DNA of 64,000 nt from NCBI GenBank assembly GCA_964586255.1, contig CAZPGE010000002.1, forward strand, positions 42,065 to 106,064, given 5' to 3'. Below the pieces are notes generated by a model. That model ran no database searches. It worked only from the letters and a program-made list of their open reading frames with translations, and had not been told where the DNA came from. How positions within the stretch are numbered: position 1 is the stretch's first letter; each line of letters opens with the position of its first letter. Shown here piece after piece: positions 12,458-38,300 of this stretch. The position numbers and the translations under genes are program-made. Source of the DNA: an uncultured Candidatus Saccharibacteria bacterium (GTDB lineage: Bacteria; Patescibacteriota; Minisyncoccia; Phycocordibacterales; UBA2100).

Positions 12458-12488
12458 TGTGCACAATTCGTGACAATATATGTGCACA
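12458..12488. promoter_or_regulatory. Two copies of palindromic TGTGCACA (12458-12465, 12481-12488) plus related TGCACA motifs upstream of the fic gene; candidate operator
   Basis: Seen directly: tatgtgcacaattcgtgacaatatatgtgcacataa. Confidence 0.35.
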
Positions 12489-13594
12489 TAAGATTTATGG
12501 TATTTAACCCCCAGACACCCTTTCAAGAGCTTCCAAATATTCCACCAGAGGAAGAGCTTTTTAACGATATTTCGATATTGAAGCTAGTGAATAAGGCCAA
12601 CAGTTCATTACACGAACTGAAGGGAGCTGCGCACGTGCTCCCGAATCGTTTTATGCTCATGTCCCCATTTTCGATTCGCGAAAGCGTGGCGAGCAACAGT
12701 ATAGAGAACATTCACACGACAGTAGCTGACGCCTTGAAGGCAGATGCTCTTTACAAAGAGTCAACAGTTAAAGGGGCGAACAAGGAAACGTTGAATTATC
12801 GAGACGCGCTCATGGCAGGCTACCGACGACTAACAGAGAATGGTTTTCTCAATACAAATGACTTCATACATATACAATCGATACTCGAACCCCAGAAACA
12901 GGGAATACGCAACGTTCCAGGCGTTGCTATAAGAAATTCTGTCACGAAAGCAGTGATATATACGCCACCTGAGGGGCCTGAGCTACTCCGATCGAAACTC
13001 AAGAATCTTGAGGATTATTTCAACAGCAAGAATGGTTTTGATGACGTGGATCCGCTTATTCGAGCGGCCATTTTGCATTATCAGTTCGAGGCGATACATC
13101 CATTTCTGGACGGAAATGGAAGAACAGGAAGAATAATCCTTGTGCTGTACCTGATTGCTGTCGGAGGGCTCGATTTGCCCGTGCTCTTCCTCAGTAAATA
13201 CCTTCTAGACCACCGTGAAGATTATTACCGGCTACTTCTGAAGGTCAGCGCGGAGAATGACTGGAAAGAATGGGTCACTTTCATGCTTAAGGCTATTGAC
13301 GAGCAAGCTAAGGAAACAAGACAAAGAATCATGCAAATCAAACGCTTGATGGAGGAGTATAGGCACATTGAAGAAAGGCGAGGGTCGGCGATTATGACGG
13401 CGAAAATGATGAACTACCTCTTCGCAAACCCCTACTACACTGTCAAAACAATGACAGAAACACTGGGTGTGCATCGCAACACAGCTCGACACTATTTCGA
13501 CGAGTTACAGAGGTTGGAAATCGTCAAGAAGTTTAAGGATGGGAGAGAAAACGTTTACTACAATCAGAAATTCCTGGACATACTGAATAGCTAA
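12470..13594 (+). CDS. Fic/Doc family protein (AMPylation-type), C-terminal wHTH-like region; alternative start 12497
   Basis: Canonical Fic motif HPFLDGNGRTGR. Confidence 0.85.
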   Translation: MTIYVHIRFMVFNPQTPFQELPNIPPEEELFNDISILKLVNKANSSLHELKGAAHVLPNRFMLMSPFSIRESVASNSIENIHTTVADALKADALYKESTVKGANKETLNYRDALMAGYRRLTENGFLNTNDFIHIQSILEPQKQGIRNVPGVAIRNSVTKAVIYTPPEGPELLRSKLKNLEDYFNSKNGFDDVDPLIRAAILHYQFEAIHPFLDGNGRTGRIILVLYLIAVGGLDLPVLFLSKYLLDHREDYYRLLLKVSAENDWKEWVTFMLKAIDEQAKETRQRIMQIKRLMEEYRHIEERRGSAIMTAKMMNYLFANPYYTVKTMTETLGVHRNTARHYFDELQRLEIVKKFKDGRENVYYNQKFLDILNS

Positions 13595-16882: not shown

Positions 16883-17004
16883 ATATCGCATGCCCGTCTG
16901 GCGAGGGTGAAAGCAGGTCTCAATGCGGTAGTCAGGGTTTCTGTTGACAAAGCTTCGGGCAGACCGCATATTCATCGCGGCATTCCGCCGCAAGGAATAG
17001 AGAG

Positions 17005-17268
17005 ATGACTGACTTTCCGTTCGGAATCAACCCGGGGCTCCCTCTCCCGGGGAGTCTCGCACATGCGAGCGTCGAGATCGAAGGAGTAGGCGGCATGAGT
17101 TTCGCGGACCCTCAGGAATCGGTCGGCGGGCTCGTGGCGCAGGTGCTCGCAATGAGCACGGGCGAATCTCGCAACGGCGGTGTGGACTTCTTCGCGGTCA
17201 CCGCGTGGGACGCTGAAGCAGGTCACCTCACCGTCAAGTTGAACGACACCGAGGTGCGCGCCGCGTGA
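17005..17268 (+). CDS. Hypothetical small protein (87 aa)
   Basis: ORF followed by a perfect hairpin terminator. Confidence 0.3.
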   Translation: MTDFPFGINPGLPLPGSLAHASVEIEGVGGMSFADPQESVGGLVAQVLAMSTGESRNGGVDFFAVTAWDAEAGHLTVKLNDTEVRAA

Positions 17269-17300
17269 AGCGAGAATGCGCATGTACGTGCGCGAAGGCC

Positions 17301-17329
17301 GGAGCTCAGCTCCGGTCTTTTGATTTTGT
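17301..17329 (+). terminator. CCGGAGCT-c-AGCTCCGG hairpin plus TCTTTTGATTTTG
   Basis: Direct inspection. Confidence 0.5.
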
Positions 17330-17431
17330 AACACTCTAGAAGTTCGGGAGTTATGCATGTCACCGACACGGTCGTTGTTAAGGGAGTGTAGGTAGTGGGC
17401 AATTCTTGCGTCTGTCGAGCCGCGTGGCATA

Positions 17432-17770
17432 GTGCCGCTCAGGAACAACGTGCGAGGACATTCCATGCCGAAACATTTCGAGGCCGCTAAGGTCACCGAT
17501 GAAGAGTGGTCGCAAATTGAAGCAGCGTTTGCGACCAGTGCACTGGTCCGAGTTGTGAAACAGATGCGCTCTCTGAACAACGCCCCGCAGAAAGCGGGCG
17601 ACATCTTCCCGCCACATCAGGACAATTACGGACACGAGCTCGTGAATACGTTTTTGCGCAAAGGAAAGCTGTCCTTTCGGTTCACCAGGACCGAGCCGCA
17701 AAAGCAGGAGCACCGGTCCGACCGCAAGCTCGCATTTGTCCGTTGGGGCGACGCGGAGCAGGCTCCGTAA
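17432..17770 (+). CDS. Hypothetical small protein (likely start MPKHFEA at 17465)
   Basis: ORF followed by hairpin repeat copy 4. Confidence 0.3.
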   Translation: MPLRNNVRGHSMPKHFEAAKVTDEEWSQIEAAFATSALVRVVKQMRSLNNAPQKAGDIFPPHQDNYGHELVNTFLRKGKLSFRFTRTEPQKQEHRSDRKLAFVRWGDAEQAP

Positions 17771-19494: not shown

Positions 19495-19857
19495 ATGACA
19501 GCGGAATCGACAGCGAAAAAGACTCGCTCTAAGGCGAAGAAGGCCGATGGAGCAAGTCGCCTGCGCATCAAAGTGCGTGCTTATGAGCACGGTGTCCTCG
19601 ATGGTGCGGTCAAGCAGATAATCGATGTCGCCGCTCGTCACAATGCCGAAGTTATCGGCCCTGTCCCGCTCCCCATCGACATCAAGAAATACACCGTCAA
19701 CCGCGCCTCTTTCATCGACAAGGATTCGCGCGAACAGTTTGAAATGCGCATCCACAAGCGCATGATTGATATCCTCAATCCTGCTGCGAAAGTGATCGAG
19801 GCTCTCACCAATATCGACCTGCCATCCGGCGTCTCGATAGACGTGAAGATGATGTAA
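19495..19857 (+). CDS. rpsJ: 30S ribosomal protein S10 with N-terminal Lys-rich extension
   Basis: ...RLRIKVRAYEH...KQIIDVAARHNAEVIGPVPLP...EMRIHKRMIDI... Confidence 0.93.
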   Translation: MTAESTAKKTRSKAKKADGASRLRIKVRAYEHGVLDGAVKQIIDVAARHNAEVIGPVPLPIDIKKYTVNRASFIDKDSREQFEMRIHKRMIDILNPAAKVIEALTNIDLPSGVSIDVKMM

Positions 19858-19919: not shown

Positions 19920-20600
19920 CTATCGTTGCTCGCGCTTGGTGCGACAGAGGATTGTCGTGAATCCGCATGATGTGTCGAGTATCTCAGGCTGGAAATCAAG
20001 TTTCTTGAGTGTCTCCGTATACCACTCGAGTGGTCGCGTGGTAAGGACGCCCACAAGTGCGGCTGCTTTTGCCGCGATTGCTTCTTCAGACAGGCCTTGT
20101 GCGCGTTTAAAATCGACATACTGCGCTTCGATATCCGGCGGGGAGGTCATTTTGTCGGTGAGGATGAATATGCCGCCAGGCTTGAGCGCGCTCCGGATGT
20201 CGCGCATATAGCTTTCGCGCTCCTCGACAAAATGCAGCGTCCAGTTAGCGAGCACGAGGTCAAAGGGTCCGAGGTGAGAAGGGAAGACGTCCGATTCAAT
20301 CAGATTCTCCTTCACACGCGAGTGCGCGAGCATGGCACGTGAGCTGTCCACACCCCACACATCGGTGAATCCTGCCATGCGGAGCTTCTCGAGTGTGTAG
20401 CCGGTGGCTGAGCCCACGTCGATAATGCGCGCATCTTTCGGCAGTGTACGCGCGACCTCTATACACTTCTCAATCACTTCCTCGTAGTGAGGAATATGTA
20501 TATGCGCCTCTTCGTCAAAGCGTGCCGCCACTTCCTCACCAAACTGCCACGTGCCTGCATTCATGGGTAGCATAGTGGCATACAGCAGACGCGTGTCCAT
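19920..20600 (-). CDS. Class I SAM-dependent methyltransferase
   Basis: Motif I IIDVGSATGY. Post-I ...VWGVDSS. Motif ...LKPGGIFILTD. Confidence 0.75.
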   Translation of the reverse strand: MDTRLLYATMLPMNAGTWQFGEEVAARFDEEAHIHIPHYEEVIEKCIEVARTLPKDARIIDVGSATGYTLEKLRMAGFTDVWGVDSSRAMLAHSRVKENLIESDVFPSHLGPFDLVLANWTLHFVEERESYMRDIRSALKPGGIFILTDKMTSPPDIEAQYVDFKRAQGLSEEAIAAKAAALVGVLTTRPLEWYTETLKKLDFQPEILDTSCGFTTILCRTKREQR

Positions 20601-20694
20601 GCACCGCTCTTGTCTTGCACAAGGGTACCGTACTCAAAAAATACACCCCGCCGATTTCTCGGCGGGGTTCTTTGTTGAGAGCGAGTTCGTCAGC

Positions 20695-22242
20695 TCACAC
20701 GACCATCGCGCTCTTCACGCGTTGCCGCGTAAGAGCAGTCGAGATCAGGACGATGACGCCGGAAGCAGCCATGGTCGTGACCGCTCCGACGATGGGCAAA
20801 TAGAGCGCCATCTGCCCGAGCGTTACCGCACCAAAGGACTGGCTGAGCGCCATCGTGATTGGCGCCATCCATTCCGTCGGATTGGCGAGGAAGTATCCGA
20901 CGACAGCCATCGGCCACCCCACAGTGAGGGAAATGACGATACCCCAGAACATTCCGCTTTCGCTAATCGTAGTTGTTCGACGTGCGAAAAGCGTGATGAC
21001 AGTCGGTAGGAACGTTGCCGCACCCAAAGAGCCGTAGATCAGAAAGAGGTGAATGATCTTCAGCCCAGGGATGACAGCGATGAGCACGCCGATGACGGGA
21101 ACCGCGAACATCGCGATACGTCCCGCACGAATCTGGTGCGCTTCGGAGTCGTGTGGTCGGAAGCGACGGAAGATGTCGCTTCCGAAGAGTGTTGCGACCG
21201 AGACGACGTGTGAATCAAGCGTCGAAATCAGTCCGAGCACCAAGCACATGGTGAACGCGACCGCCACAGGCCAGGGCAGAAGTTGCTGCACCAGCTCGAT
21301 GCCGACGTACTGCGGATTCGTAATCACGAACCCGCTTATCGTGTGGATTGCCCCAGCGGCGATGATGCCGAGGAGGGAGAGGGCCAGCACGACAACGGCG
21401 AAGATAGGTGCCGCGAGGAGAAACTGATTCCGCCTCGCTTTGCGCTCGCCCGCGTAGGCAAGCTGCCAGAAGCTCTGGTCTCGCCAGGGTCCCGCGAGCC
21501 AATTGAGCGACGCGGGAATGCCGAACGTGAGCATCAGGATATACGCTTTCTCGCCGACAAAGGGATTCACATAGTCCGCGTTCTTGCCGTAGAGACCTGC
21601 CGCGAGATTCTCCCAGCCACCCGCTTTCACGAATACCCACGGCAAGACGATTGCGAGCATCGTGATGAGCATCCAGCCCTTCGCGTTGTCGCTCAAGATG
21701 GAGGCCCGCATTCCGCCGAAGGCTGTGTAGATCATCGGTGCGAATGCGATTCCGATAGCTGCGTAGAGTTTTGGTATCGGGGTCAGATACGCAACCACCT
21801 CGGCGCCGGCAAGTACCTGCACCGCGAACGCCGACACCCCGAGAGCGCCGAGAGCGAGAAGGTAGAGACTCTCTACGCGCTTTGAATAGCGTCGCCCCAT
21901 GTATTCAGGGAGCGTGATTCCGAGCGGATAGAGTGAGGTGATGCGGTACGCTGCAAACGCGAAGAGCGCGAGACACAGCGCATTGATTGGCGTGTACCAA
22001 AACGGGCCAATCCAACCGTATTGGTACCCGAACATCGAAGAGATGAAGTAGGCCGGAGCCCAGGTCCACGCCGCGAAGCTGGCGACAGCTCCCATCAATG
22101 TCGAGGTTGCGCGATTGTTGAGGTAGTAGCTCGCCTTGGTCGTTTGCACGGCCGCAGAGCCGTACATGCTGATCCCGGTAATCATAGCGAGAAAAAGCAC
22201 CGCAAGACCAATGAATTGCGGTCCGGTCAGAAGATGTTCCAT
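20695..22242 (-). CDS. Sodium:solute symporter family-like transporter (about 13 TM)
   Basis: Polytopic membrane protein with SSS-like topology. Family assignment from general sequence resemblance only. Confidence 0.55.
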   Translation of the reverse strand: MEHLLTGPQFIGLAVLFLAMITGISMYGSAAVQTTKASYYLNNRATSTLMGAVASFAAWTWAPAYFISSMFGYQYGWIGPFWYTPINALCLALFAFAAYRITSLYPLGITLPEYMGRRYSKRVESLYLLALGALGVSAFAVQVLAGAEVVAYLTPIPKLYAAIGIAFAPMIYTAFGGMRASILSDNAKGWMLITMLAIVLPWVFVKAGGWENLAAGLYGKNADYVNPFVGEKAYILMLTFGIPASLNWLAGPWRDQSFWQLAYAGERKARRNQFLLAAPIFAVVVLALSLLGIIAAGAIHTISGFVITNPQYVGIELVQQLLPWPVAVAFTMCLVLGLISTLDSHVVSVATLFGSDIFRRFRPHDSEAHQIRAGRIAMFAVPVIGVLIAVIPGLKIIHLFLIYGSLGAATFLPTVITLFARRTTTISESGMFWGIVISLTVGWPMAVVGYFLANPTEWMAPITMALSQSFGAVTLGQMALYLPIVGAVTTMAASGVIVLISTALTRQRVKSAMVV

Positions 22243-22387
22243 CGTCTGAGTCCTTTGTGTTAGTCAGAGAACAGGTGTACAGATGCGACCGAGCGTCGCA
22301 TTCGCGCTCATCTTACATCACCAGTCTTTTCCCGCGTATTGACAGTGCGCCCCCCTCAGGGTTTGCGTACGTGGGGGGAGACGGGGT

Positions 22388-23494
22388 CTAAGAGAGTCCG
22401 ATGAAGTCGTTCTGCGGGTCGTAACAGACGCTCGGGTCGAGGTCCTTGTAGTAGTGGAAGTCCTCATCAATAAAATCGTACGATGCCTGCTGCATGATGA
22501 CATTGTGCAGAGAGCCGCGCTTCATCTTGTTGTCGCGATAATCCGCATCTTTCGTGAAATTGTATATTGCCTCCTTGCACACCCACTTGTACGTGCGCCA
22601 CTCATCTTTGATTCTTTTGTCCATATTATTCAGACTCCAGAGTTGGAATTCTTCCGTCCCGTAAAAAGATGCGTTGCGCGTGCGCACGTACTCAGGAGTT
22701 ATTTTATCGACATTGCGTGCTGCCACGGTCGTGAGCGTACGTAGGTAGGTGTTCTGCCATTTTTGCGAGAAGTTAATCCACCAGAGGTAATCGAAGTGCG
22801 TCTCGATGGGGACGGGCGCTTTTTCTATAGTGCGCTCGAAGAGGTCGAGAAAGAGATTGGTCGCTGCATCGTTCTGGATTGTCTCGTTCCAGAAGGTAAA
22901 GAAAGTCTCGCGCTTGCGCGGCGTATGAATGATTGCGGGCCCAAAGCGAGACATGAGTCTTCCGACTGAATCGAAGCCAAACAGCTGGTCGTTCTGCTCT
23001 CCGTTGGTCACGATGGAGTTACCGCCGAGAAGATAGGGATACATCATCGACGACCCCGCGCGAAGTTTTCCGCGCACGTATGTCTCGTAGAACAGCGGGT
23101 ATTCTGCGATAGATTCTTCTGTCATAAGTACGACGATGCGCTTCCTCTGCTCCGCAGTCGCGTTTTTTAGAAGTGAGGTGAGCACGAGTGTGGAATCGAT
23201 ACCGCCGGACCACAAGGTGTGGATGTCAGCGTCAAAAGAATCCGCGCGCGCGAGAAGCTCCAGCGCTCTCTCGTCGCACAGCTGTTCAAACGTCTTCTTC
23301 ATCGGTCGCATGGCGGGGATAGGGGTGATGAGCCTGGTCTTAATCGGCCAGCGAATGGAGCCGGTACGGTCAGTGGGAGCGAGTCCGACGGAAAACATCT
23401 TTCCTAGCAAGCGAAACGAGTTCACGCCGGGCAGTTCTGCATAGGGTGAGCGCGCGAGTACCAACGTGTTGTATTGGATGATTTCTTTTGCCAT
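22388..23494 (-). CDS. PP-loop ATP pyrophosphatase superfamily protein (AsnB C-terminal/QueC/TilS-like)
   Basis: SGGIDST PP-loop motif (..IHTLWSGGIDSTLVLTS..). Confidence 0.6.
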   Translation of the reverse strand: MAKEIIQYNTLVLARSPYAELPGVNSFRLLGKMFSVGLAPTDRTGSIRWPIKTRLITPIPAMRPMKKTFEQLCDERALELLARADSFDADIHTLWSGGIDSTLVLTSLLKNATAEQRKRIVVLMTEESIAEYPLFYETYVRGKLRAGSSMMYPYLLGGNSIVTNGEQNDQLFGFDSVGRLMSRFGPAIIHTPRKRETFFTFWNETIQNDAATNLFLDLFERTIEKAPVPIETHFDYLWWINFSQKWQNTYLRTLTTVAARNVDKITPEYVRTRNASFYGTEEFQLWSLNNMDKRIKDEWRTYKWVCKEAIYNFTKDADYRDNKMKRGSLHNVIMQQASYDFIDEDFHYYKDLDPSVCYDPQNDFIGLS

Positions 23495-23499
23495 AGAGA

Positions 23500-24204
23500 C
23501 TAGACGAGTTGTTTCGAATGACAGTCCAACATGAATTGTCGGACTATCTCAGGTATCTTATCGGATTCCGTTTCTCGTTTGATACGGTCAAAGTACCTAA
23601 GCCTCAGCGTCTCTGTCTTGGAGAGAAATGCATCATCCAACTCCGCATTAAAAAGAATACTGTCAGCTGCTTCGCGCAGCGAGACATTCGTGAGGTCTGC
23701 GTACTGCACCACGTAGGGGATGCTCATGAGCATGGACTCATCGTACCCGGACAGTTTGAATTTCTCGGCCTGCATCTTTTTCGTGAGGTAAATCGTCTCT
23801 TGAAAGGCCAGCCCTGTCCCTATCTTCGTGCGCAACCAATTGATTTCTGCGATAACTTGGGTCACGGCTTCGATGCGAGCTACAGCGAGCTTGGCCCGAG
23901 CGGGCAGACTTGGATCGACATCGTGTGGTTGTAGTCTCACGAACGCATGAAACTTTTGCTTGTACCCCCACTCGGGAAGTCGCACCGGATCCATAGAAGC
24001 AAGCGAAAGGCCTGTGTTATCGATAGCTGAGGTGCGAGGGGTAAATTGTGCGTCGGGTATGGAATCCGCGACAACCGCTACGGCTGCGACGTGGGGATGC
24101 AGCGCGAGAAGCGCAAATGTAGGTGGACCGACGAACAGTGCCCCGTAATTCACCGCCGCGCCCCTTGATTCTGTGCCACCGAACACCTTCTTTATGAGAG
24201 ACAT
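23500..24204 (-). CDS. Hypothetical protein (start trimmed to Met133 of the long ORF to remove the 330-bp overlap with the upstream gene)
   Basis: ORF in operon context. No motif recognised. Confidence 0.35.
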   Translation of the reverse strand: MSLIKKVFGGTESRGAAVNYGALFVGPPTFALLALHPHVAAVAVVADSIPDAQFTPRTSAIDNTGLSLASMDPVRLPEWGYKQKFHAFVRLQPHDVDPSLPARAKLAVARIEAVTQVIAEINWLRTKIGTGLAFQETIYLTKKMQAEKFKLSGYDESMLMSIPYVVQYADLTNVSLREAADSILFNAELDDAFLSKTETLRLRYFDRIKRETESDKIPEIVRQFMLDCHSKQLV

Positions 24205-24266
24205 CGAATCGATTATATCGGATGCGCCATCGATTGCGAACGGATGGGCATTTTCTGACGTATCGC

Positions 24267-25148
24267 TTACACGCGTGGAGTGAGTTGAGCTGTAAATTCT
24301 GGAATCGAAAGTGTATACCTCAGCACATGCTCGTCGGCTCTTTTTTTCAGCGCGTCTTTCAGCGCAGTCAAATCTGGAGAGATATTTTTCAAGCCGCGTG
24401 ATTTCGGACGATGCGCAAGGGTAGGCCAATATTGCTGAGACACGAGTCGTCTGAGCAGGGAAGCGTTTGCCGGATGATTGAATACATCCGGATGGTCGAG
24501 CGCGAAATCTATAAGCGGTATGCGTAGGTACGATAGACAAAGCTCGGGGGTGCTGTACAGAAAGTACGGTTCGTGTGAGGTGTTGTTTCTCTGGAGCCAT
24601 TCGAGTGGGACACCAAGTCCCGAGTTACATTCGAGGAATACGTCACTCCGAGACGGGTGCGCGCGCCCTGAATCAATTTTGTAGAGCTGTTTTCCCGCCG
24701 CTATGACTGCGTAGCCCTCCATCGCATCGACGGTCTCCATAAGTGCAATCTGCATATATCGTAGAAGATCAGAAGAGATGTAGTCTTGTTCCGTGTAGAG
24801 CAGCACCTGTTTTTCCAAGAAGCCACGCATGTCTAGGCGGACGATTTTTTGGTGCACTCCGTGTTTTTGACACCAGGTGCGGGCATGCTCGACCTCGTGC
24901 TCATTTGTTCCGTCGCCATACGCAATCGTCAGGACAGAGAAATTAATGCCCTGGTCAAAAAAAGAGTGGCACATTATCTCACTGTCGAGACCTCCGGAGG
25001 AGCAGAGCCAGAGGGGCTTCTGAGCTTTTGAAGCGATAGAGCGTGCCGCAGCGTAGAGTTCTTCTTTCCAGGTCAGTGGCTCTCGTGTACATGCGTGGAA
25101 CGTCACGGAGAATTTTCCAGCTTTGGTCTCACAGTGCATCGCGCTCAT
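24267..25148 (-). CDS. Second PP-loop ATP pyrophosphatase superfamily protein (start trimmed; the Arg-rich N-terminal extension of the ORF is probably not translated)
   Basis: CSSGGLDSEIMC PP-loop motif. Confidence 0.55.
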   Translation of the reverse strand: MSAMHCETKAGKFSVTFHACTREPLTWKEELYAAARSIASKAQKPLWLCSSGGLDSEIMCHSFFDQGINFSVLTIAYGDGTNEHEVEHARTWCQKHGVHQKIVRLDMRGFLEKQVLLYTEQDYISSDLLRYMQIALMETVDAMEGYAVIAAGKQLYKIDSGRAHPSRSDVFLECNSGLGVPLEWLQRNNTSHEPYFLYSTPELCLSYLRIPLIDFALDHPDVFNHPANASLLRRLVSQQYWPTLAHRPKSRGLKNISPDLTALKDALKKRADEHVLRYTLSIPEFTAQLTPRV

Positions 25149-25314
25149 GGAGGTACTATACGACAGAATCATCGGCCTACATGCGGTGACTTTATGCCAG
25201 GCAGGCAACCCGCGACGCTTGACAAGGTGCATGGAGCGATGGATAGTAGAGGTCGGAAGGAGCCGCGCATGCGCTTGGCATGTGTTCGGTGCGCCTGTCC
25301 CCATGGAGATAGCT

Positions 25315-25593
25315 ATGAGAAAGACTTTCTGGGGTCTTACTGGCCTCGCTCTTGCATTCGTCGTGGCACCGTCGCTGGTGCCGCTGCCGACAATGACCGC
25401 GGCCGGCCTCGAAATGAGGATCGACACGGCCGAAGCTCGTTGCGGCGACGAATGCCAGCGGCGTTGCCGCGTCTCGATTGCACAGGGCGAGTACAAGAAC
25501 ATGCGCGCCTGCATCGCGGTCTGGGGACCGCGCAATGATGAGCGGCATCGGCAGATCCGCGCCAACAGGCGCGCGTTCGGTCAGGCTCGCTGA
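25315..25593 (+). CDS. Small secreted Cys-containing protein (92 aa)
   Basis: GGAG RBS. Signal peptide MRKTFWGLTGLALAFVVAPSLVPL... Four Cys in the mature part. Followed by a hairpin. Confidence 0.4.
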   Translation: MRKTFWGLTGLALAFVVAPSLVPLPTMTAAGLEMRIDTAEARCGDECQRRCRVSIAQGEYKNMRACIAVWGPRNDERHRQIRANRRAFGQAR

Positions 25594-25617
25594 TTCGCCA
25601 GCCGCGCAGATATACAA

Positions 25618-25640
25618 CCCCTCGGTTCTCGGACCGAGGG
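25618..25640. terminator. CCCCTCGGT-tctcgg-ACCGAGGGG hairpin between convergent genes
   Basis: Direct inspection. Confidence 0.5.
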
Positions 25641-25648
25641 GTGCAATT

Positions 25649-27295
25649 TTATGATTTCCGTTTTAGACAGTACATCTCATTAGCAACGGTTCGGGCGAAA
25701 AGATGTTTCGTAGTCTCATTGCACGCAATTTTACTCATCATACGCTCGCTTGCCTGGAAATGGCCGCGATGTGTTCCTCGTTCTCTATCCAATTCGTACA
25801 AGCGTCCGTCGTTGGATCCAATAAAAAGTGAGTCGCCAATTGCGATAGGGGAGCCAAACACGCGGCCGTTGGTCTCAAACGCCCAGCGACGTTTCTTGGT
25901 GTCGATGTCTATCGCATAGACGGATTTGTCGAGCGACGCGACATATACCGTATCCCCCTGGACAAGAGGAATCGAATAGATGGCGCCGCCGGTTTCGTAT
26001 GCAAATACGGGTTCGCCAGTATCAGCGGCGAGAGCGTACAACTTTCCGTCCATCGAAGCAACAAACACGAGTCTTCTCTTTGCATCATACGCGGGTGCGG
26101 TCTTTATATCTCCGTCAGTCTTGTATCGCCACATGAGCGCGCCCGTATTTGCTTCGTAGGCGTAGCAGATGCCATCGTTGCTCCCAATCACCACCATCCC
26201 TTCTTCTTTTATATAGAGAGGAGTCCCGTGTGTGAGTGAGGAGGTGATGTCTTGCCAGCGTTTTTCGCCTGTATGCATATCGAGCGCGACAATACCGCCG
26301 CGCTTACCGAATAGCCCAAACTCAAGTCCGATGTAGAGAAGCCCAAGATCCGGCGCAATAGAAGGAGACGAGCCAACCCAATCAGCATCGTCGTATCCCC
26401 ATTTCTTCACCCCCGTCTTTGTATCAAGTGCGTACACGACTCCATCGTACGCACCAAAATAGAGCACTCCCTTGTGGAGTGCAGGTGTAGAGAGAATCCC
26501 CTTACCTTCAGGGTGCTTGCCGACCGTGAATTCCCAGATGATTGCACCAGTCCTCTGGTCGAGCGCCCGCATAGTGCCATCGTCGCATCCGAGAAAGACG
26601 AGCGTATCATCGAGCACCGGCGCAGATTTCTGTACGACAAGGTGGAGGCTGGGGTGCGGCCCCGTATAGCGCCACACAGTCTCAAACTCAGAGTTCTTAT
26701 TCGGCTGCACTTTCTTCAGAAGAGGTATCCCAAAATCTTCGAGGGTAAAAAGATGATTCACCGCGATGCTTCTGTCCTCGAGTGATTTGTATGCATCGCG
26801 CGCCCTGAAGGCGAGCATGGCAAATACATCCGTGACTTTTCTCCCCGTGTCGGCGAGTACTGCGAGCTGTTTCTCAAATGTCGAACCGGTGTTGATAAGA
26901 TCGTCGACGAGAATGACGGGGTGCTCGTCGAGCGTGCCCTCAATCTGGCGCATGAGCCCCTGACGTTTGCGTGACTTTCTTATATAGAAACCATTCACCG
27001 GTGTGCCACGCTCTATGCCCTTCATCACGATGGCGGCTACTAATGCTATGGCGGCCGTTTCCATCGCACCGACCTGGAAAGGGTATTTCGGTGCGTATCG
27101 TTCCCAAAATATCTCGGCGTAGCGATTGAGCCAGTATGGCTGGAGCATGAGAGCGCGAAAATCAAAGAGCCACGACTCGCGCCTCCCCGTACTTTCCGAC
27201 GCGACGATGACCGCACCCGATGATCGTCGCGCAAGGGCGACAGACTCTATTGTTCGGTGTAGGTCGCTATATTTATTGTCCATGCGAATCGTCAT
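25649..27295 (-). CDS. Fusion protein: type I phosphoribosyltransferase domain + PQQ-like beta-propeller repeats
   Basis: PRPP-binding motif VILVDDLINTGSTF. At least six repeats of xDGxxYAxDxxTGxxxW type in the C-terminal 350 aa. Confidence 0.7.
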   Translation of the reverse strand: MTIRMDNKYSDLHRTIESVALARRSSGAVIVASESTGRRESWLFDFRALMLQPYWLNRYAEIFWERYAPKYPFQVGAMETAAIALVAAIVMKGIERGTPVNGFYIRKSRKRQGLMRQIEGTLDEHPVILVDDLINTGSTFEKQLAVLADTGRKVTDVFAMLAFRARDAYKSLEDRSIAVNHLFTLEDFGIPLLKKVQPNKNSEFETVWRYTGPHPSLHLVVQKSAPVLDDTLVFLGCDDGTMRALDQRTGAIIWEFTVGKHPEGKGILSTPALHKGVLYFGAYDGVVYALDTKTGVKKWGYDDADWVGSSPSIAPDLGLLYIGLEFGLFGKRGGIVALDMHTGEKRWQDITSSLTHGTPLYIKEEGMVVIGSNDGICYAYEANTGALMWRYKTDGDIKTAPAYDAKRRLVFVASMDGKLYALAADTGEPVFAYETGGAIYSIPLVQGDTVYVASLDKSVYAIDIDTKKRRWAFETNGRVFGSPIAIGDSLFIGSNDGRLYELDRERGTHRGHFQASERMMSKIACNETTKHLFARTVANEMYCLKRKS

Positions 27296-27304
27296 TCGAC
27301 TGAC

Positions 27305-28018
27305 CTATCCTTTACACACGGTAATCGCAAGCACCGTCTGTTCCTGCTCCTCGTCGAGGTCGAGGAGCTCGGAGATACGTTCGTCGTTGAATCCTGCGTA
27401 CGGTCTGACGTTAAGATCGAGTGCGCATCCAACAAGCAAGATATTCTCACTCATGTGTCCCGCCTCGAGGAGTCCGTGCGTGTATGAGATGTCTCCATAT
27501 TTTGCGGAGGAGCGAGCCCATACGCTCGTGAAGACGATAAGAGTCGAGAGCGGGAGCGGCTCAGGGTACTTTGCCAGACTCTTCATATCGAAATCTTGGG
27601 GCAGATTCCAGAGCTGTTCCAGTGAATGTTCAGTCGGATTGTAGTGAAATACTGCTGGGGCCTGTGACTCGAGCGCCGTTGAGATGACGTATGTCTCTAT
27701 TGGATAGAGCCCGCCTCCGGAGGGGTAGTTTCGATAGTGTGCTCCGGGTCGCTTCTGAAGGGCGAGACCGAGGAGGGTGCCACACTCCTGAAGTGTAAGG
27801 TCGATACTTGGATTACCACTCAAAGCCGAATGACGCTTCTTGATTGCATCGGGCAGGGTGATACTGAGACCTTCTGGCTGCGGGAGAGGCACCTTCTGCA
27901 TCCGCGAATACACCTTGTGTACTCCTCGAGGCACGTCCTCCGGGCGGTGCGTGGCGCCCCTCTTTGTAAGCAGAGCACGGCGCAGTTCGGTATGTAAATG
28001 CGATATAAATGATGTCAT
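27305..28018 (-). CDS. SagB-type dehydrogenase (nitroreductase superfamily; TOMM azoline oxidase-like)
   Basis: YPSGGGLYPIETYV matches the PSAGGLYP signature of McbC/SagB dehydrogenases. Start overlaps the YcaO stop (ATGA). Confidence 0.75.
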   Translation of the reverse strand: MTSFISHLHTELRRALLTKRGATHRPEDVPRGVHKVYSRMQKVPLPQPEGLSITLPDAIKKRHSALSGNPSIDLTLQECGTLLGLALQKRPGAHYRNYPSGGGLYPIETYVISTALESQAPAVFHYNPTEHSLEQLWNLPQDFDMKSLAKYPEPLPLSTLIVFTSVWARSSAKYGDISYTHGLLEAGHMSENILLVGCALDLNVRPYAGFNDERISELLDLDEEQEQTVLAITVCKG

Positions 28019-29508
28019 GAAAATGGATGGGGCCTATCAGCAAACGGCTTGCTCAAGGGAGTATATCCGAGTGCTTTAGGGATGTCGTGCCATCTCGTGC
28101 CGCCAAATTGTTGGACCCACTCGTTGAGGTACGTCGGCTGCAGCTTCGGCATGATGACCATCTCAATGTGCAGAGATGAGGGATTTTTTGCCGATGAGGT
28201 GAGAGGGACCGAGATGCATTCAAGATGTGAGTCTTTGCACCACTGCACCACTCTCTCATAGTGTTCCTCCACAGTATCGATGTCCCACGCTTTGTCACCA
28301 ATCTCGATTTCAGGACCGCGAATCATAAACTCAAGATGCTTCGCGTTTTCAGGTACGCCCCAATAGTACAGGCGCTCGCGGTGGCCGATTTTTTCCGAGG
28401 GGGTGCGCATATCCCAGACGTTTCCCGCGCCAGTCCACAGGCTGTGCGCGCGATATGCCCGGAGCGCCTCAGTCATGGCTTTCTCGATGGCGTAGGGAAG
28501 TGACTGATGTGCCTTGAGGCCGACCACAAAGCGTGGCGCATTGCCACCAATGTCTTCGATGACCACCGCCACGGCGTGTGTCGGCGCGTCAGTGGGAAGC
28601 TGCAGTACGTGCGTTTTGAATTGGTACCTTTCGCACTGTGCGATAGCCCTGGCAAGCGATGGGTATTTCGCGCAGAGAGGGTCGAGTGCAAGGCGGGGAA
28701 GCGTCAATTGGTTAAACCACATCATCATATAGGCATCTCGCTCGATGACTTCAAGCGCTCCTGCAAGTCGTGCGCCGTTCTGTGTTGGCCATGTGGCGAG
28801 TCCGTTCGTGTTTTGTTGTCGTATGATCGGCTCTTCCGTACCACCTGTCATAGCGCGAGGTCGAACACCGCTCACCGTTTGCGCCGGTACGTATATGCGC
28901 TCTCCACTCACGAGAGAAGTGCCCTGAATCCAGAGGTACTCAGCATCTGGGCGGAGTTGCCGCTGAGGATGGCGTGTCCGTTGCTCATCGGAAAATCCGA
29001 CGAAATCCTCCGGGGCCACACGCGGGCCGATTGCACTGATCGCTTCCGAGGTAGCTCTTTTGGGGCTCATGAAATAGTCGTCCTGCGTCATCCAGATGTA
29101 TCGCTCAAGGGCCTCTGCGAGCGCGGCGTAGAGGGCACTCTCGTCATCTTCCCACGAAGTTCCTCCTACGTTGTGACTTGTGGGGTCGTTGCAGATAGCG
29201 TACCAACCTTTGGTTCGCGGTAAATCCGGCCAGAGATTTTTCACTGGTCCGAATGATTGTATGACCCCGTGCTTTTTCAGTAGTGCAGCCAGTGTGAGCG
29301 GTTCGAGTATATCAAGACGAGAAAAGGGTATGCTCCGCAAGTCCTTCACGACTTTGACACCAAGGCTTTTTTCGAGATACTCCGAGAGAGCCCCGAGCGC
29401 TCTCGCTTTAATATCGGAGCTGGAGAGTGTCTCACGGAACGGCACGGCGTCAAAAATCATGCGCCAATCATAGCAGTACCCATACCTCCCAGAAAGCATT
29501 CGCTCCAT
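28015..29508 (-). CDS. YcaO domain protein, paralog 1 (start set at MERMLSG with GGAG RBS; the longer ORF to 29952 carries a Pro/Gln low-complexity antisense artefact)
   Basis: GGTSWEDDESALYAALAEALERYIW and GALEVIERDAYMMMW motifs typical of the YcaO ATP-binding region. 60% identity to the 33278 paralog. Confidence 0.75.
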   Translation of the reverse strand: MERMLSGRYGYCYDWRMIFDAVPFRETLSSSDIKARALGALSEYLEKSLGVKVVKDLRSIPFSRLDILEPLTLAALLKKHGVIQSFGPVKNLWPDLPRTKGWYAICNDPTSHNVGGTSWEDDESALYAALAEALERYIWMTQDDYFMSPKRATSEAISAIGPRVAPEDFVGFSDEQRTRHPQRQLRPDAEYLWIQGTSLVSGERIYVPAQTVSGVRPRAMTGGTEEPIIRQQNTNGLATWPTQNGARLAGALEVIERDAYMMMWFNQLTLPRLALDPLCAKYPSLARAIAQCERYQFKTHVLQLPTDAPTHAVAVVIEDIGGNAPRFVVGLKAHQSLPYAIEKAMTEALRAYRAHSLWTGAGNVWDMRTPSEKIGHRERLYYWGVPENAKHLEFMIRGPEIEIGDKAWDIDTVEEHYERVVQWCKDSHLECISVPLTSSAKNPSSLHIEMVIMPKLQPTYLNEWVQQFGGTRWHDIPKALGYTPLSKPFADRPHPFS

Positions 29509-29524
29509 ACTCCACTCCAGAGCA

Positions 29525-29920
29525 TTGAACATCGTCGGCATTGTTGCGATAATGACTGGTATGGCGATGTTTGAAAAGATGAGTCGTGGCGTGCAAGGCA
29601 TTGTTGGGAAAATCGGGAGTGTAGCGCTCATCATGTTCGGATTTTTGCTGGTGTTTTCTTCCACGCATTCGAAAGCGGGGACTGCCCAGTCGCAGGATGG
29701 AATATTTGGCGCCGACGTCGCCCACGCAGATGCTCCGTATGACCCCAACAGCTGCACTACGGGCGACTGCGTCGCGTGTGCAGCCTGCACGAGTGACGGA
29801 GGGGCGGGTTGCGGCACCGGCGGTTGCACGGGCGGCGCCGATGGAAGTGGTGCTGGAGGAAGCTGTGCCGGCGATTGCGACAGCGGCGACGGCGGCTGCG
29901 GCTGCGGTGCCAGCGGCTGA
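29525..29920 (+). CDS. Candidate RiPP precursor-like peptide 1: hydrophobic N-terminal segment + Cys/Gly/Ser/Thr-rich C-terminus (alternative start 29579)
   Basis: ...DVAHADAPYDPNSCTTGDCVACAACTSDGGAGCGTGGCTGGADGSGAGGSCAGDCDSGDGGCGCGASG*. Divergent from YcaO-1. Confidence 0.5.
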   Translation: MNIVGIVAIMTGMAMFEKMSRGVQGIVGKIGSVALIMFGFLLVFSSTHSKAGTAQSQDGIFGADVAHADAPYDPNSCTTGDCVACAACTSDGGAGCGTGGCTGGADGSGAGGSCAGDCDSGDGGCGCGASG

Positions 29921-29943
29921 TTGCTGCGCATGGCAATGAATAC

Positions 29944-31044
29944 ATGTCTCATTCACTAAAACTCGTTGGTTGGCTCATTGCTTTGCTTGTCATTCCCGCG
30001 GGGTTGTATGCTCTGTATACATATATTTTCTATGACCCGAATCCTAGTCAGTTGACGCGGGATTTGGAGCAGCTCGTCGATGCAAAAGTACGTGGCGATG
30101 ATGCTGCAGCTCTCGCGCAGTACCAGCAGATTCTGAGCGACCCCACATCGACGGCAGAAGAGCGGGCCATAGCCGATGTCTATATAGCCGGTACCGAATT
30201 CAGTCTTTCCGGAGACATGAGCTCGCGACTCAGCGATGTGCGGAAAATGAAGAGGATTGTCGCTGACAGCACACTCTCCGCGACAGTGCGTGCCGCAGCG
30301 ATGAGCGTTCTGGGTAATGCATATGCGGTCTCGGGGGGAGATCCCGCGGTGTTCGCCGAGATCTACAAGGGCGCACCATTTGACTCCTACCTTGTCCCGG
30401 ATAGACCTCAGCTCTCTGCCATCAATCTACTGAAAGAGTCATACGCCATGCAGCCATCGTCGTTTGCGGCGAGCAAAGTGGCCGAGCTTGCTTCAGGTCG
30501 GTATTTTGCGAATCCGCAGCAGGACGCAACTACGACAGCGGCCTACGTCGCACTGGCGGAAGAGTACTTGAACAAGGCGGACATCGCGGCTCTTAGTGAG
30601 GCGCAGCAAAGACCTGCCACATACGCCAGTAGCGATCGATATATTTTGTATAGACTATCGAGAGCGATAACCGTCGGTCGTCTGGCAATACAAAAAGGAG
30701 AGCCATACAAAAATTCCTACCGTAAGGAATTCAATAACTTCATTGCACTTGCGCAATCAATACAGAGCACTCTCGCACACAATGTGGTGTTCAATGCGCG
30801 CTTCCAATACGCGAGGATTCTCGAGGCAGATGGGGATACGACAGCCGAGAAAACACAGCTCGACATACTTGCGCGAGAGTTGGATAGACTCTCCAATCCA
30901 AACACCATTCCGTTCGTGCTCTCCTTGAGAAATGCACGCGCACAGCCGACCGAAGCGATGTGGCTCTCAGTGCAAAGAATGTCGTCGACTTCGCCGGAGT
31001 TTAAGACCGCAATCGACAAGCTCACGGCCGCTTCATCGAGCTAA
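29944..31044 (+). CDS. TM-anchored alpha-helical protein, paralog A (366 aa)
   Basis: N-terminal TM LVGWLIALLVIPAGLYALYTYIF. Homologous to 35098..36231 (KGAPFDSYLV vs KDPPYSTFFV). Confidence 0.55.
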   Translation: MSHSLKLVGWLIALLVIPAGLYALYTYIFYDPNPSQLTRDLEQLVDAKVRGDDAAALAQYQQILSDPTSTAEERAIADVYIAGTEFSLSGDMSSRLSDVRKMKRIVADSTLSATVRAAAMSVLGNAYAVSGGDPAVFAEIYKGAPFDSYLVPDRPQLSAINLLKESYAMQPSSFAASKVAELASGRYFANPQQDATTTAAYVALAEEYLNKADIAALSEAQQRPATYASSDRYILYRLSRAITVGRLAIQKGEPYKNSYRKEFNNFIALAQSIQSTLAHNVVFNARFQYARILEADGDTTAEKTQLDILARELDRLSNPNTIPFVLSLRNARAQPTEAMWLSVQRMSSTSPEFKTAIDKLTAASSS

Positions 31045-31083
31045 AAGGAGAAAGATTCGTCGGCGTACGATACAAAAAAGAAT

Positions 31084-31104
31084 GGGCGGCACAACGTGCC
31101 GCCC
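31084..31104. terminator. GGGCGGCAC-aac-GTGCCGCCC hairpin between convergent genes
   Basis: Direct inspection. Confidence 0.5.
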
Positions 31105-31131
31105 TGTATTCGTGAGCGGCGCAGGCCGCTG

Positions 31132-31728
31132 TTATTTCGGAACCTTGTCGTTCGGGACAATGTCTCCGATCCTGGTCGCGAAGTCGACCCGCATCTGCGC
31201 GATCTGCAGCCGGGTAAACATATCCTTCTTGAACATCGGCCACCACTTCTCGGCCGAATGCAGAACCAGCATCGGCCCCAGATCACCTTGGATGACGCGA
31301 GCGCTCCTCGGATCGCCGGGAGCCTGGAGCCGACCCCACGATGCGCCGAGGGCGCATCTTCCGCCGGCGAACGGCAGATAGGAGTTTTCGCCATCCTTGT
31401 CGGTCTCGGCGAGAAACTTCTTCAGGTTTGCCGCTGACTTGAAACACCAGGTGACGCCCTTCAGCCTCGTCTGGTATTTGTCGCAGTCGGCGACGTCGGG
31501 CTGCCCGCCCTTCTCGGCGTTCAGCCAGGCCGATACGACGTCGTAATCGACCCGCGCACCCTTCTCGTGTTTTTTCCACGAGAATGCCACGCCGTCGTTG
31601 ACGACGATTTCGGTCAGAGGCTTCTTGTCCTCCTTCGCGACTGCGGGCTTCGCCACCTCCTGCGCGAGGCCAGCGCGGGAAAAACATGCCGCGAGGATGC
31701 CCGCGGCAACCAACAAAAGCTTTCTCAT
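31132..31728 (-). CDS. Putative lipoprotein (lipobox LAAC)
   Basis: MRKLLLVAAGILAACFS. No domain recognised. Confidence 0.5.
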   Translation of the reverse strand: MRKLLLVAAGILAACFSRAGLAQEVAKPAVAKEDKKPLTEIVVNDGVAFSWKKHEKGARVDYDVVSAWLNAEKGGQPDVADCDKYQTRLKGVTWCFKSAANLKKFLAETDKDGENSYLPFAGGRCALGASWGRLQAPGDPRSARVIQGDLGPMLVLHSAEKWWPMFKKDMFTRLQIAQMRVDFATRIGDIVPNDKVPK

Positions 31729-31843
31729 TGAGTCAATTCCTCTGGGTTCGAGGGGGCACTGGTACCCACCTGTGCGTATTGGAGACTATTTTCCCGACTT
31801 ATGCAAACGAATGTCACATTGGCCCGATATACAAAAAGGAAGA

Positions 31844-31889
31844 GGCGGTCACTGGAGACTCGAGAGTCAGTGCCGCCTTTTCTTTTTTT
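31844..31889 (+). terminator. Strong rho-independent terminator GGCGGTCACTGGAGACTCGAGAGTCAGTGCCGCC+TTTTCTTTTTTT with no confident upstream CDS
   Basis: Long hairpin plus 12-nt T-run. Possible 3' end of a small RNA. Confidence 0.5.
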
Positions 31890-32429
31890 GCGCCTGAGCG
31901 CAAAGGAGCATGGTCATTGCAGCGACCCGCTACCTGTAAAAAACATACTATGCTTCGCATGAAGGAGCAAGGAAGTCGGCGGGCGGTCACCCGCCCGCCG
32001 CCCCGGATGCTGCTTACGAGCTACTACACCCTAGTCGTACACGTGCCTACCGTGTGGTCACAAACACTGACCGGTGGTGGGGCACCTGTTGCACTTTGGT
32101 GCTTCCGACTTGCTGGCCGAAGCCACTTTCGTCGGATGGCTTGCACGAGTGCCTGCGAGGGCGCTCGTTGATGCAAACACGACTGCAATCGTGCCTGCAA
32201 GCAGCATCATCACTGCGTTTCGCATATGAGTCTCCGATATGCGATGAAGACGGAGGTTTACACGGGAATGTCCGCCAGTCTCCTAGGAGCTCGTCTACGC
32301 AATACTTGAAGAACGATCCCGCGCAGACCTTAGCGCGGTGGAGTGAGTGAGTCAATTTTTGATACTGCTGGTACGATCGCGTGGAGGAATTCCTTGATGT
32401 ATCCCAATAAATATGTACTAGTTCCGGTA

Positions 32430-32481
32430 GTCGGGATGAAATCCAGATGCCTCTGGGTACCCGTCGGCATGGGAGAGAAAC
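32430..32481 (+). promoter_or_regulatory. Conserved 5' leader (GTCGGGATGAAAyC-hairpin-GGTACCCGyC) upstream of small secreted Cys-rich peptide gene, copy 1
   Basis: Aligns with 32888..32928. The internal hairpins covary (CCAGAtgccTCTGG vs CCGGGagCCCGG). Confidence 0.4.
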
Positions 32482-32730
32482 ATGCACAAGAATATCGTGA
32501 TTGCGGCACTCGTAGTGTTCGGAGTCGCCGCCTCGTCGCCCTCGCAGGCGGGGAAGGCATCGGCTCGCACCTGCAGTGGGCAGCACAGCATCTGCCTCAA
32601 CTTCTGCAGCACATCGGGGCGGGGCGGGGACTGTACCAGTGATTGCGCCGGTCGTCAGGCCACGTGCCTGCAGACTGGAACCTACATGTGGATCAACAGT
32701 CCCACGATTAGGGGACTGGTTCGCAAGTAA
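32482..32730 (+). CDS. Small secreted Cys-rich peptide (82 aa, 6 Cys)
   Basis: Signal peptide MHKNIVIAALVVFGVAASSPSQA. Mature part GKASARTCSGQHSICLNFCSTSGRGGDCTSDCAGRQATCLQTG... Confidence 0.45.
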   Translation: MHKNIVIAALVVFGVAASSPSQAGKASARTCSGQHSICLNFCSTSGRGGDCTSDCAGRQATCLQTGTYMWINSPTIRGLVRK

Positions 32731-32887
32731 GGCGACTTGTGCGCCAAAGGGTACGAGACGTGCCAGGCAAACGCCCGCGATGCAGTAGCGTCCGGGCGTT
32801 TTTTTGCGCTACCCCTTTTTGGTTTCAGCGAGACGGTTGCTGAGAGCACCTTGACTCATGGCAATAAAAGTGTAGTAATACAGTCAG

Positions 32888-32928
32888 TCGGGATGAAACC
32901 GGGAGCCCGGGTACCCGCCTTGGAGGCA
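32888..32928 (+). promoter_or_regulatory. Conserved 5' leader, copy 2
   Basis: gtcgggatgaaaccgggagcccgggtacccgccttggaggcaatg. Confidence 0.4.
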
Positions 32929-33174
32929 ATGATGAAAAAGATCCTTCTCGGTACCGTCGTGGGTACCGCCCTGCTTGCGATGTTCGCGCTTACGCCGGCG
33001 TCGGCGCAGGGAACGAACTATGCCGGTCAGTGCTCGAGTTACTCGGCACCGGCGGACTGTCTGAAATGCTGCGGAACATTTCACAAGAGCTCGTACCTGA
33101 GCGCGGAATGCACGAACTCGTGCAAGATCAGCAACTTCCGCGATTCGAGGAACATGTCGCCGAAGCGCAAGTAG
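32929..33174 (+). CDS. Small secreted Cys-rich peptide (81 aa, 6 Cys)
   Basis: GGAGG RBS. Signal peptide MMKKILLGTVVGTALLAMFALTPASA. Mature part ...GQCSSYSAPADCLKCCGTFHKSSYLSAECTNSCKIS... Confidence 0.45.
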   Translation: MMKKILLGTVVGTALLAMFALTPASAQGTNYAGQCSSYSAPADCLKCCGTFHKSSYLSAECTNSCKISNFRDSRNMSPKRK

Positions 33175-33277
33175 TCGCGCGTATCAAGGCGCGCGTCGGA
33201 TGCGTCGGAGAGAAGTCTCCGACGCATTTTTTATTTTCGACGCTTTTTCGCGTAGATGCTTGAGAGGAGGAGAGGTA

Positions 33278-34783: not shown

Positions 34784-34830
34784 ACATTTCGTTTTTATAT
34801 GACACCCGCAGGGTGAATAATGGGGGAATC

Positions 34831-35091: not shown

Positions 35092-35097
35092 CATAGT

Positions 35098-36928: not shown

Positions 36929-37004
36929 TTTTCGATACTTTTCTGTCCCCAAGTCGGAAGAGAGAACGAGAAATCGAGAAAACACGACCTGTATACTGTC
37001 TTGC

Positions 37005-37478: not shown

Positions 37479-37485
37479 GAAAAGT

Positions 37486-38298: not shown

Positions 38299-38300
38299 GA

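Follow-up and report, generated by a model that had tools for sequence, protein, structure and literature searches.

What do two PP-loop adenylating enzymes do when they flank a hypothetical gene close to a YcaO operon? The question is raised by the minus-strand locus at positions 22388-25148 of a 64-kb stretch of DNA (the window) from an uncultured Candidatus Saccharibacteria bacterium (contig CAZPGE010000002.1), whose three genes we call C, B and A in the direction of transcription. An earlier interpretation of this DNA (the sequence-only reading) had considered that the two flanking proteins might modify peptides alongside the YcaO pathway, for example in the manner of lasso-peptide cyclases, or might be tRNA-modification enzymes of the TilS or QueC type. 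We lean, if modestly, towards another answer, namely that C-B-A is a portable three-gene cassette that is neither housekeeping nor a built-in part of the YcaO pathway. Portability is indicated because the A and C families occur in viral contigs and A is also present in distant bacterial phyla. The cassette is self-contained, with B belonging with A and C representing a frequent third member.

Two PP-loop motifs mark the C-B-A locus

Protein A (368 amino acids; 22388-23494, minus strand) is a PP-loop adenylating enzyme and a predicted free-standing AsnB-type synthetase domain without a glutaminase domain. Protein B (234 amino acids; 23500-24204, minus strand) is its partner, and protein C (293 amino acids; 24267-25148, minus strand) is a member of a separate uncharacterized PP-loop family. 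A search for SGGxD[ST] in all six frames of the window returned only two matches, SGGIDS in A (residues 96-101; 23192-23209, minus strand) and SGGLDS in C (residues 51-56; 24981-24998, minus strand), and shuffling the bases of the window 200 times gave 0.34 matches on average and 3 at most. The sequence-only reading had located one such motif in each of the open reading frames (ORFs) flanking B and assigned both proteins to the PP-loop enzymes, and both statements are borne out. In A, the motif lies in the context WSGGIDST and SGGIDS is invariant among 48 family members, and also in both the group inside and the group outside the candidate phyla radiation (CPR). The context in C is SSGGLDSE, with G52, G53, S56 and E57 invariant in the family alignment. 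Outside the motif, A and C had been described as unrelated, which is essentially so: a profile-profile comparison of the two families aligned 99 columns confined to the PP-loop half (probability 72%, E = 3.4e-5). The trimming of overlong annotated N-termini was likewise sound, as the C family alignment opens at MSA... and both the called gene and its relatives support the start of B. The length of 235 amino acids proposed for B was one codon too long.

B accompanies A in CPR bacteria and in viral contigs

The source organism is a CPR bacterium of Paceibacteria/Kaiserbacteria type. To describe the genomic context of A, we used 25 CPR loci carrying it, counting neighbors within the fetched stretch and YcaO within 10 kb (loci are cited by our own numbers). 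B lies directly upstream of A in 23 of these 25 loci and in 65 of 78 viral loci. The gene that had been called hypothetical is no bystander but a near-constant partner of A. Other neighbors of A in the CPR sample are a gene encoding a phosphoribosyltransferase (PRTase)-PQQ fusion (14 loci), an AHADAP-type peptide gene (13), an SSF-family symporter gene, usually just downstream of A (11), rpsJ (11), YcaO (10) and C (9). C is found directly next to A in L007, L008, L012 and L022, and the PRTase-PQQ gene is located directly upstream of B in L004/L009, L012, L016, L023, L029 and L031.

In the window, the cassette belongs to a roughly 20-kb island (19920-39900) between the ribosomal protein genes rpsJ (19495-19857) and rplC (39965-40588). 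CPR relatives show the same placement of an island with variable contents near tuf, rpsJ and rplC/rplD. The genes sit in a variable island instead of the conserved housekeeping context that, with clear orthology to TilS and QueC, the sequence-only reading had named as grounds for refutation.

The viral sample was drawn from IMG/VR, whose contigs are predicted viruses, and 159 viral loci were examined together with 55 non-CPR bacterial loci (L032-L086). A has at least 518 relatives there, encoded by 518 of the 600 IMG/VR pattern matches listed, and C has 218 viral relatives, often as tandem copies. Within a set of 78 viral loci, a cupin gene is adjacent to A in 28 and C is found within 8 kb in 15. 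C and B-A share an operon in viral loci L092, L103, L118, L123, L128 and L132, while L174 shows the C-B-A order of the window beside an SSF gene; SSF genes also adjoin the cassette in L111, L115 and L169. A single locus can hold A, B and C in multiple diverged copies (L013/L014, L102, L195). Viral neighbors of the cassette include phage-type exonucleases, PhoH, deoxyribonucleotidase and dCMP deaminase. Two of the viral operons that combine C with B-A are long (L092, 1265-9104; L128, 1434-16793) and represent an uncharacterized viral tailoring pathway. Partners with Pfam support in L092 are a fatty-acid-desaturase-like protein, an Asp/Asn-hydroxylase-like protein, a radical SAM/SPASM protein and one GNAT. 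From our reading of the sequences, further operon partners may be an acyl carrier protein (ACP)-like ORF (L092 only) and TauD-like, B12-type radical SAM, GNAT-like and glycosyltransferase-like proteins.

At 30-35% identity, relatives of A extend to Bacteroidota, Acidobacteriota, Proteobacteria, Planctomycetota and Chloroflexota. In 39 of the 55 non-CPR bacterial loci a cupin gene is present within 1.5 kb of A. It encodes a conserved metal-binding protein of about 220 amino acids with the signature YIDGCSDSLL...HxHPS (e.g. L032 8894-10912, L033 9465-11772), and this cupin also comes after B-A in many viral loci and is found near B-A in some CPR loci. Small proteins are encoded upstream of A in Bacteroidota and the other non-CPR phyla and show no detectable relationship to B (hhalign probability <2%). 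Carriers of A include the cultivable genera Tenacibaculum, Aquimarina and Ralstonia, which are amenable to genetics.

B itself has no recognizable family. Scans against PHROG and PADLOC returned a single match, to phrog_8983 of unknown function (E = 6e-4). Its N-terminal half is variable while the C-terminal helical domain is conserved (QE.vY..K..QA ... PyV.QYAD ... AADdIl.KA ... LaktE.lRl.YF), and it is this C-terminal half alone that models well, matching generic helical bundles only. We also considered B as a split glutaminase domain and ruled this out, as it possesses neither Cys1 nor an alpha/beta fold and has no GATase match.

C-B-A is probably transcribed apart from the YcaO operon

The gap between A and B is 5 nt and that between B and C 62 nt, and 500 nt lie between C and the next minus-strand gene, which encodes the fusion of a PRTase with a PQQ-like beta-propeller (25649-27295, minus strand; Pfam/NCBIfam scans). 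Beyond it are genes for a SagB-type nitroreductase (27305-28018, minus strand; TIGR03605, 108 bits) and YcaO (28015-29952, minus strand, true start probably internal; 158 bits). The 500-nt gap contains a plus-strand ORF for a small secreted Cys-rich protein (25303-25593; ORF list and gene calls on identical contigs) and a terminator-like hairpin of 11 pairs (25617-25642) located between the end of the PRTase-PQQ gene and the C-B-A unit. On the other side, 145 nt downstream of A, is the gene for an SSF-family sodium:solute symporter (20695-22242, minus strand; Pfam SSF and TIGR00813), after which come a bidirectional terminator-like hairpin of 10 pairs, 8 of them GC (20645-20668), and a methyltransferase gene (19920-20600, minus strand). 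Because of the 500-nt gap, the opposite-strand ORF and the two hairpins, C-B-A(-SSF) probably forms its own transcription unit apart from the YcaO operon, with the SSF symporter probably being its last gene. ORF 25303-25593 marks the boundary and lies outside the cassette. The sequence-only reading had placed the three genes in one minus-strand string with the YcaO operon; the shared orientation holds, but the string is interrupted by the ORF and hairpin in the gap.

A is predicted to be an AsnB-type synthetase domain

No Pfam model matches A at E<=0.1, and NCBIfam, PHROG and PADLOC models do not match it either. Its 377 relatives at about 50% identity are all named hypothetical, and homologs from cultured organisms appear in RefSeq as 'hypothetical protein', apart from a few that were automatically labeled 'asparagine synthase'. 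An AlphaFold2 model based on a 48-sequence alignment (predicted local distance difference test score of 94) shows an AsnB-type synthetase-domain fold, other PP-loop families scoring 6.7 or less in structure comparison. The AsnB-like character attributed to the protein earlier is thus seen in its predicted fold, which resembles the C-terminal domain of AsnB. After the fourth strand, A carries a GE(H/Q)NDQLFG motif that resembles GEGSDEVFGGY of AsnB, a likeness read from the motifs and not confirmed by profile alignment; when the A family was compared with E. coli AsnB in hhalign, 25 PP-loop columns aligned and nothing further. An N-terminal class II glutaminase domain (N-terminal nucleophile (Ntn) type, Cys1) was not found in the 368 amino acids of A, where the PP-loop begins at residue 96, and Pfam/NCBIfam scans returned no GATase match in A, B or neighboring genes. 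Across CPR, other bacterial and viral contexts, some 35 residues of A show almost no variation. Searches of PDB sequences with the family profiles of A, B, C and the cupin returned PP-loop-level or generic cupin matches only.

C belongs to a PP-loop family distinct from TilS and QueC

The C family comprises 1,396 clusters (50% identity) at E<=1e-3, mostly full-length proteins of about 290 amino acids; 173 of the clusters reach E<=1e-30. Some relatives carry a methyltransferase fused to the N-terminus or a GNAT acetyltransferase domain fused to the C-terminus (P0231, P0273), and a GNAT-like gene directly follows C in phage operons.

QueC is 7-cyano-7-deazaguanine synthase and possesses a C-terminal zinc-binding Cys cluster. 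Against the Pfam QueC model, C scores 27.8 bits over its N-terminal 73 residues only. With TIGR00364 (QueC) it reaches 28.2 bits against a cut-off of 150.3, covering only model positions 6-76 of 201, and with TIGR02432 (TilS) 15.7 bits against a cut-off of 93.6; A matches neither model. Similarly weak QueC matches were obtained with PADLOC (E = 4e-4) and PHROG (QueC-like, E = 4e-4), the former being the only match of any of the three proteins to PADLOC defense-system models. The family alignment of C shows conserved cysteines at positions 20, 49, 60 and 93 only and no conserved C-terminal Cys cluster.

These results bear on the suggestion that both PP-loop proteins have a housekeeping role in tRNA modification, as TilS, QueC or a thiolase. 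In its favor, the N-terminal part of C weakly matches QueC, TilS_N and ThiI-type PP-loop models, and a rhodanese gene is present elsewhere in the island (36861-37478). However, the scores are far below the equivalog cut-offs and limited to the PP-loop, A has no match, C lacks the Cys cluster, and the distribution is patchy, multi-copy and viral, with the window copy in a variable island. Neither protein is an ortholog of TilS or QueC, and as far as sequence allows the housekeeping interpretation is refuted; we give it hardly any credence.

Proposed chemistry and competing explanations

The chemistry of the cassette is inferred to be ATP-dependent carboxyl adenylation followed by amide formation. 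A would act as a free-standing AsnB-type synthetase domain with B as a specificity or scaffold subunit, and C would be a second adenylating enzyme from its separate PP-loop family. Each PP-loop enzyme would bind ATP at SGGxDS and adenylate a carboxyl (or carbonyl) oxygen of the substrate with release of pyrophosphate, after which a nitrogen nucleophile would displace AMP. Because A, B and their neighbors offer neither a glutaminase domain nor a glutaminase subunit, this nucleophile would be free ammonia or an amine. The reaction would yield an amide or, alternatively, a lactam, or a nitrile or amidine after use of a second ATP. Asparagine synthetase (AS)-like enzymes are reported to amidate, nitrilate or hydrazidate peptide carboxylates (PMC13060819; PMC13622209). 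As a best guess, the AHADAP peptides of the island, which are acidic and Gly/Cys-rich, could supply the carboxylate that serves as substrate (Asp/Glu side chains or C-terminus); alternatively, the substrate may be a carboxylate or amine solute imported by the SSF symporter. The CPR context and the phage operons with their oxygenases, radical SAM/SPASM, GNAT and ACP favor a peptide or other tailored product, and the nucleotide-metabolism neighborhood in phages leaves a nucleic-acid target open.

If peptides are the substrate, A, B and C could have a dedicated tailoring function in the linear azol(in)e-containing peptide (LAP) pathway of the adjacent YcaO/SagB, amidating or cyclizing Asp/Glu residues or the C-terminus of Cys/Gly-rich precursors. 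The cassette shares its island and orientation with YcaO-SagB, the precursor tails are full of Asp/Glu carboxylates and the order YcaO-SagB-PQQ-B-A is contiguous in L004, L012 and L029; AS-like enzymes are moreover established tailors of peptides that are made by the ribosome and modified after translation (RiPPs) (PMC13060819; PMC13622209), and LAP clusters are known from CPR genomes (PMC7298704). Yet YcaO is present at only 10 of the 25 CPR loci with A, no YcaO, SagB or AHADAP peptide was found in the 159 viral and 55 non-CPR bacterial loci, L006 encodes YcaO, SagB and C without B-A, and the two units of the window are kept apart by a hairpin and a gene on the opposite strand. The earlier proposal that the PP-loop enzymes are specific helpers of the YcaO pathway is accordingly weakened for the window genome, and we regard it as unlikely though far from negligible. 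Lasso-type cyclization was rejected as a more specific role: A is devoid of the N-terminal domain, Pfam/NCBIfam scans of the genes at 19920-29952 found neither a transglutaminase-like leader protease nor a RiPP recognition element (RRE)/PqqD protein, and no Asp/Glu occurs at a fixed distance after the AHADAP motif.

A small-molecule role would have SSF import a carboxylate or amine solute that A-B (and C) convert, for instance by ammonia-dependent amidation, as salvage or auxiliary metabolism that would benefit CPR bacteria, with their reduced cells, and phages. The position of SSF beside A in 11 of the 25 CPR loci and in the four viral loci named above fits such a role, as do the many residues of A that are invariant across phyla and viruses, the restriction of detected precursor peptides to CPR and the location of phage cassettes amid PhoH, deoxyribonucleotidase and dCMP deaminase. 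Multiple diverged copies of A, B and C per locus speak against it, however, and radical SAM/SPASM, Asp/Asn-hydroxylase-like, GNAT and ACP partners resemble natural-product tailoring more than salvage; overall we consider this role rather doubtful. Nucleobase modification is common among PP-loop enzymes (TilS, QueC, ThiI, MnmA), and the cassette could belong to a hypermodification pathway of phage origin that acts on a conserved macromolecule, be it the bases of DNA or RNA or the proteins or glycans of virions or cell surfaces; the CPR copy would then be domesticated or transferred. Its abundance in viral contigs, the adjoining dCMP deaminase, deoxyribonucleotidase and exonuclease genes, and large phage operons with 2-oxoglutarate (2OG) oxygenases, radical SAM, desaturase-like and glycosyltransferase-like proteins, GNATs and ACP are consistent with this possibility. 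On the other hand, AsnB-type enzymes are not known to use nucleic acids as substrates, the neighborhood showed no DpdA/TGT-like or base-exchange enzyme, tblastn with A-family queries found no carrier among isolate phages, and the contextual support comes from neighborhood only, making hypermodification improbable in our view.

Several observations also count against the portable cassette as we propose it. The link of A to AsnB stands on one AlphaFold model: PF00733 (Asn_synthase) does not detect A, no sequence profile ties it to that family, and Foldseek with the model recovers the same AsnB-type targets only weakly (E of about 1e-3, TM-score of about 0.3). The Glu-Tyr dyad of the carboxylate site, which is conserved in five AS-like enzymes (PMC13060819), appears to be replaced by Gln170/Asp175 in A according to motif reading. 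The modeled fold of B yields no functional clue. On the genomic side, the phage genes confirmed beside the cassette are of DNA-metabolism type only, the IMG/VR contigs are predicted viruses, and tblastn searches of isolate phages and plasmids with three A-family queries found no relative. The roughly 35 near-invariant residues of A, combined with the lack of AHADAP peptides outside CPR, argue for a common substrate rather than the hypervariable peptides of the island, and together with the SSF neighbor the invariant residues favor a common small molecule. A wider version of the portable-cassette proposal, which we advance as speculation with little confidence, is that C-B-A together with cupin, GNAT, 2OG oxygenases, radical SAM and ACP constitutes a mobile pathway common to uncultivated phages, CPR bacteria and other phyla that adds a hitherto undescribed amide-type modification to a conserved target, for example a protein of the virion or cell surface, a nucleic-acid base, a lipid or a glycan, with A-B being a new two-subunit AsnB-type ligase.

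Comparison with known systems

AsnB-type synthetase domains such as those of TsnB9, beta-lactam synthetase and the carbapenam synthetase CarA make amides or lactams on natural products. The hydroxyamidotransferase TsnB9 (7ylz), beta-lactam synthetase (1jgt), CarA (1q15) and E. coli AsnB (1ct9) are 10-15% identical to A. In contrast to these enzymes, A lacks an Ntn domain (glutaminase or pseudo-glutaminase) at its N-terminus, Gln/Asp appear to occupy the Glu/Tyr positions by motif reading, and A has the near-constant partner B whereas the known enzymes work without a separate partner. Related enzymes of RiPP pathways include those for TsrC-type C-terminal amidation and the lasso-peptide cyclases. 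The RiPP AS-like enzymes PesC (C-terminal nitrile of nitrilobacillins) and FzmA (C-terminal hydrazide in fosfazinomycin) are likewise of AsnB type and adenylate carboxylates of ribosomal peptides (PMC13060819; PMC13622209), and B-A adjoins genes for acidic peptides in CPR. The RiPP enzymes are, however, full-length AS homologs, with the ammonia used by PesC derived from glutamine, whereas A possesses no such domain. The cassette also differs in having no RRE, leader protease or lasso-type B protein and in occurring where no precursor is detectable.

LAP clusters with YcaO, nitroreductase and peptidase have been reported in 93 CPR genomes (PMC7298704). The window resembles these thiazole/oxazole-modified microcin (TOMM)/LAP clusters in its YcaO, SagB-type dehydrogenase and Cys/Ser/Gly-rich precursors, but the published description includes neither PP-loop enzymes, B and the PRTase-propeller fusion nor the rpsJ-rplC location. 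QueC and the QueC-like defense proteins QatC and Cap9 share with C the N-terminal PP-loop region that matches QueC models, and both QueC and C would adenylate a carboxylate and form an amide. They differ in that the match covers only about 70 residues, the C family lacks the C-terminal Cys cluster, and no deazaguanine-pathway genes or Qat/CBASS partners were seen near C.

Peptide pathways with AS-like enzymes and CPR genomes with LAP clusters are already known (PMC13060819; PMC13622209; PMC7298704). New are a glutaminase-less AsnB-type enzyme with a near-constant partner, a second large uncharacterized PP-loop family, and their joint dissemination among predicted phages and distant bacterial phyla. 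New amide, nitrile and hydrazide chemistry is increasingly coming from adenylating enzymes of the AsnB and QueC types. A and B are unmatched in Pfam/NCBIfam, and C matches QueC only in part, over the PP-loop. For annotation, this means that such genes should be labeled neither TilS nor QueC and should not be counted automatically within CPR azole-peptide clusters.

Further genes of the ribosomal protein island

The island interrupts the S10-L3 ribosomal gene pair, which is normally contiguous. In the window it harbors two YcaO loci and AHADAP peptides, with candidate precursor genes at 29525-29920 and 34675-35091 (both plus strand). AHADAP peptides consist of a hydrophobic N-terminal anchor, the motif G(I/V)AHADAP and a tail that is either Gly/Ser/Asp/Cys-rich or Tyr/acidic; from its sequence, the AxA-like motif is possibly a cleavage site. 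Further candidates of this type are encoded in L004, L006, L008, L012, L017, L018, L019, L021, L025, L026 and L029. In L018, L021 and L026, which have no YcaO, the AHADAP gene is located immediately upstream of B-A on the opposite strand. One member (L013/L014) stops two residues past the motif. L013 and L014 overlap on one contig (CAYYEX010000004.1), and this stretch of about 35 kb contains four copies of A, three or four of B and two of C in addition to five adenylate-forming ligases of CapK-like type and, in eight copies, a membrane-anchored protein without a known family, so that paralogs are markedly expanded here.

The PRTase-PQQ fusion, conserved in CPR relatives, combines an orotate-PRTase-like domain with an eight-bladed PQQ-type beta-propeller. 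The second YcaO (33278-34783, minus strand) has its own precursor and no adjacent SagB dehydrogenase, and after it come a DsbA-like thioredoxin (36215-36928, plus strand) and the rhodanese (36861-37478, plus strand); this locus could carry out a different, maybe sulfur-related chemistry. Small ORFs with signal peptides and multiple cysteines dot the island, comprising the boundary ORF at 25303-25593 (plus strand) and others at 32058-32225 (minus strand), 32482-32730 (plus strand) and about 32950-33174 (plus strand). Upstream of the island, between tuf and rpsJ, a Fic/DOC protein (12470-13594, plus strand) and a protein with weak similarity to SUKH-4 immunity proteins (16972-17604, minus strand) are encoded.

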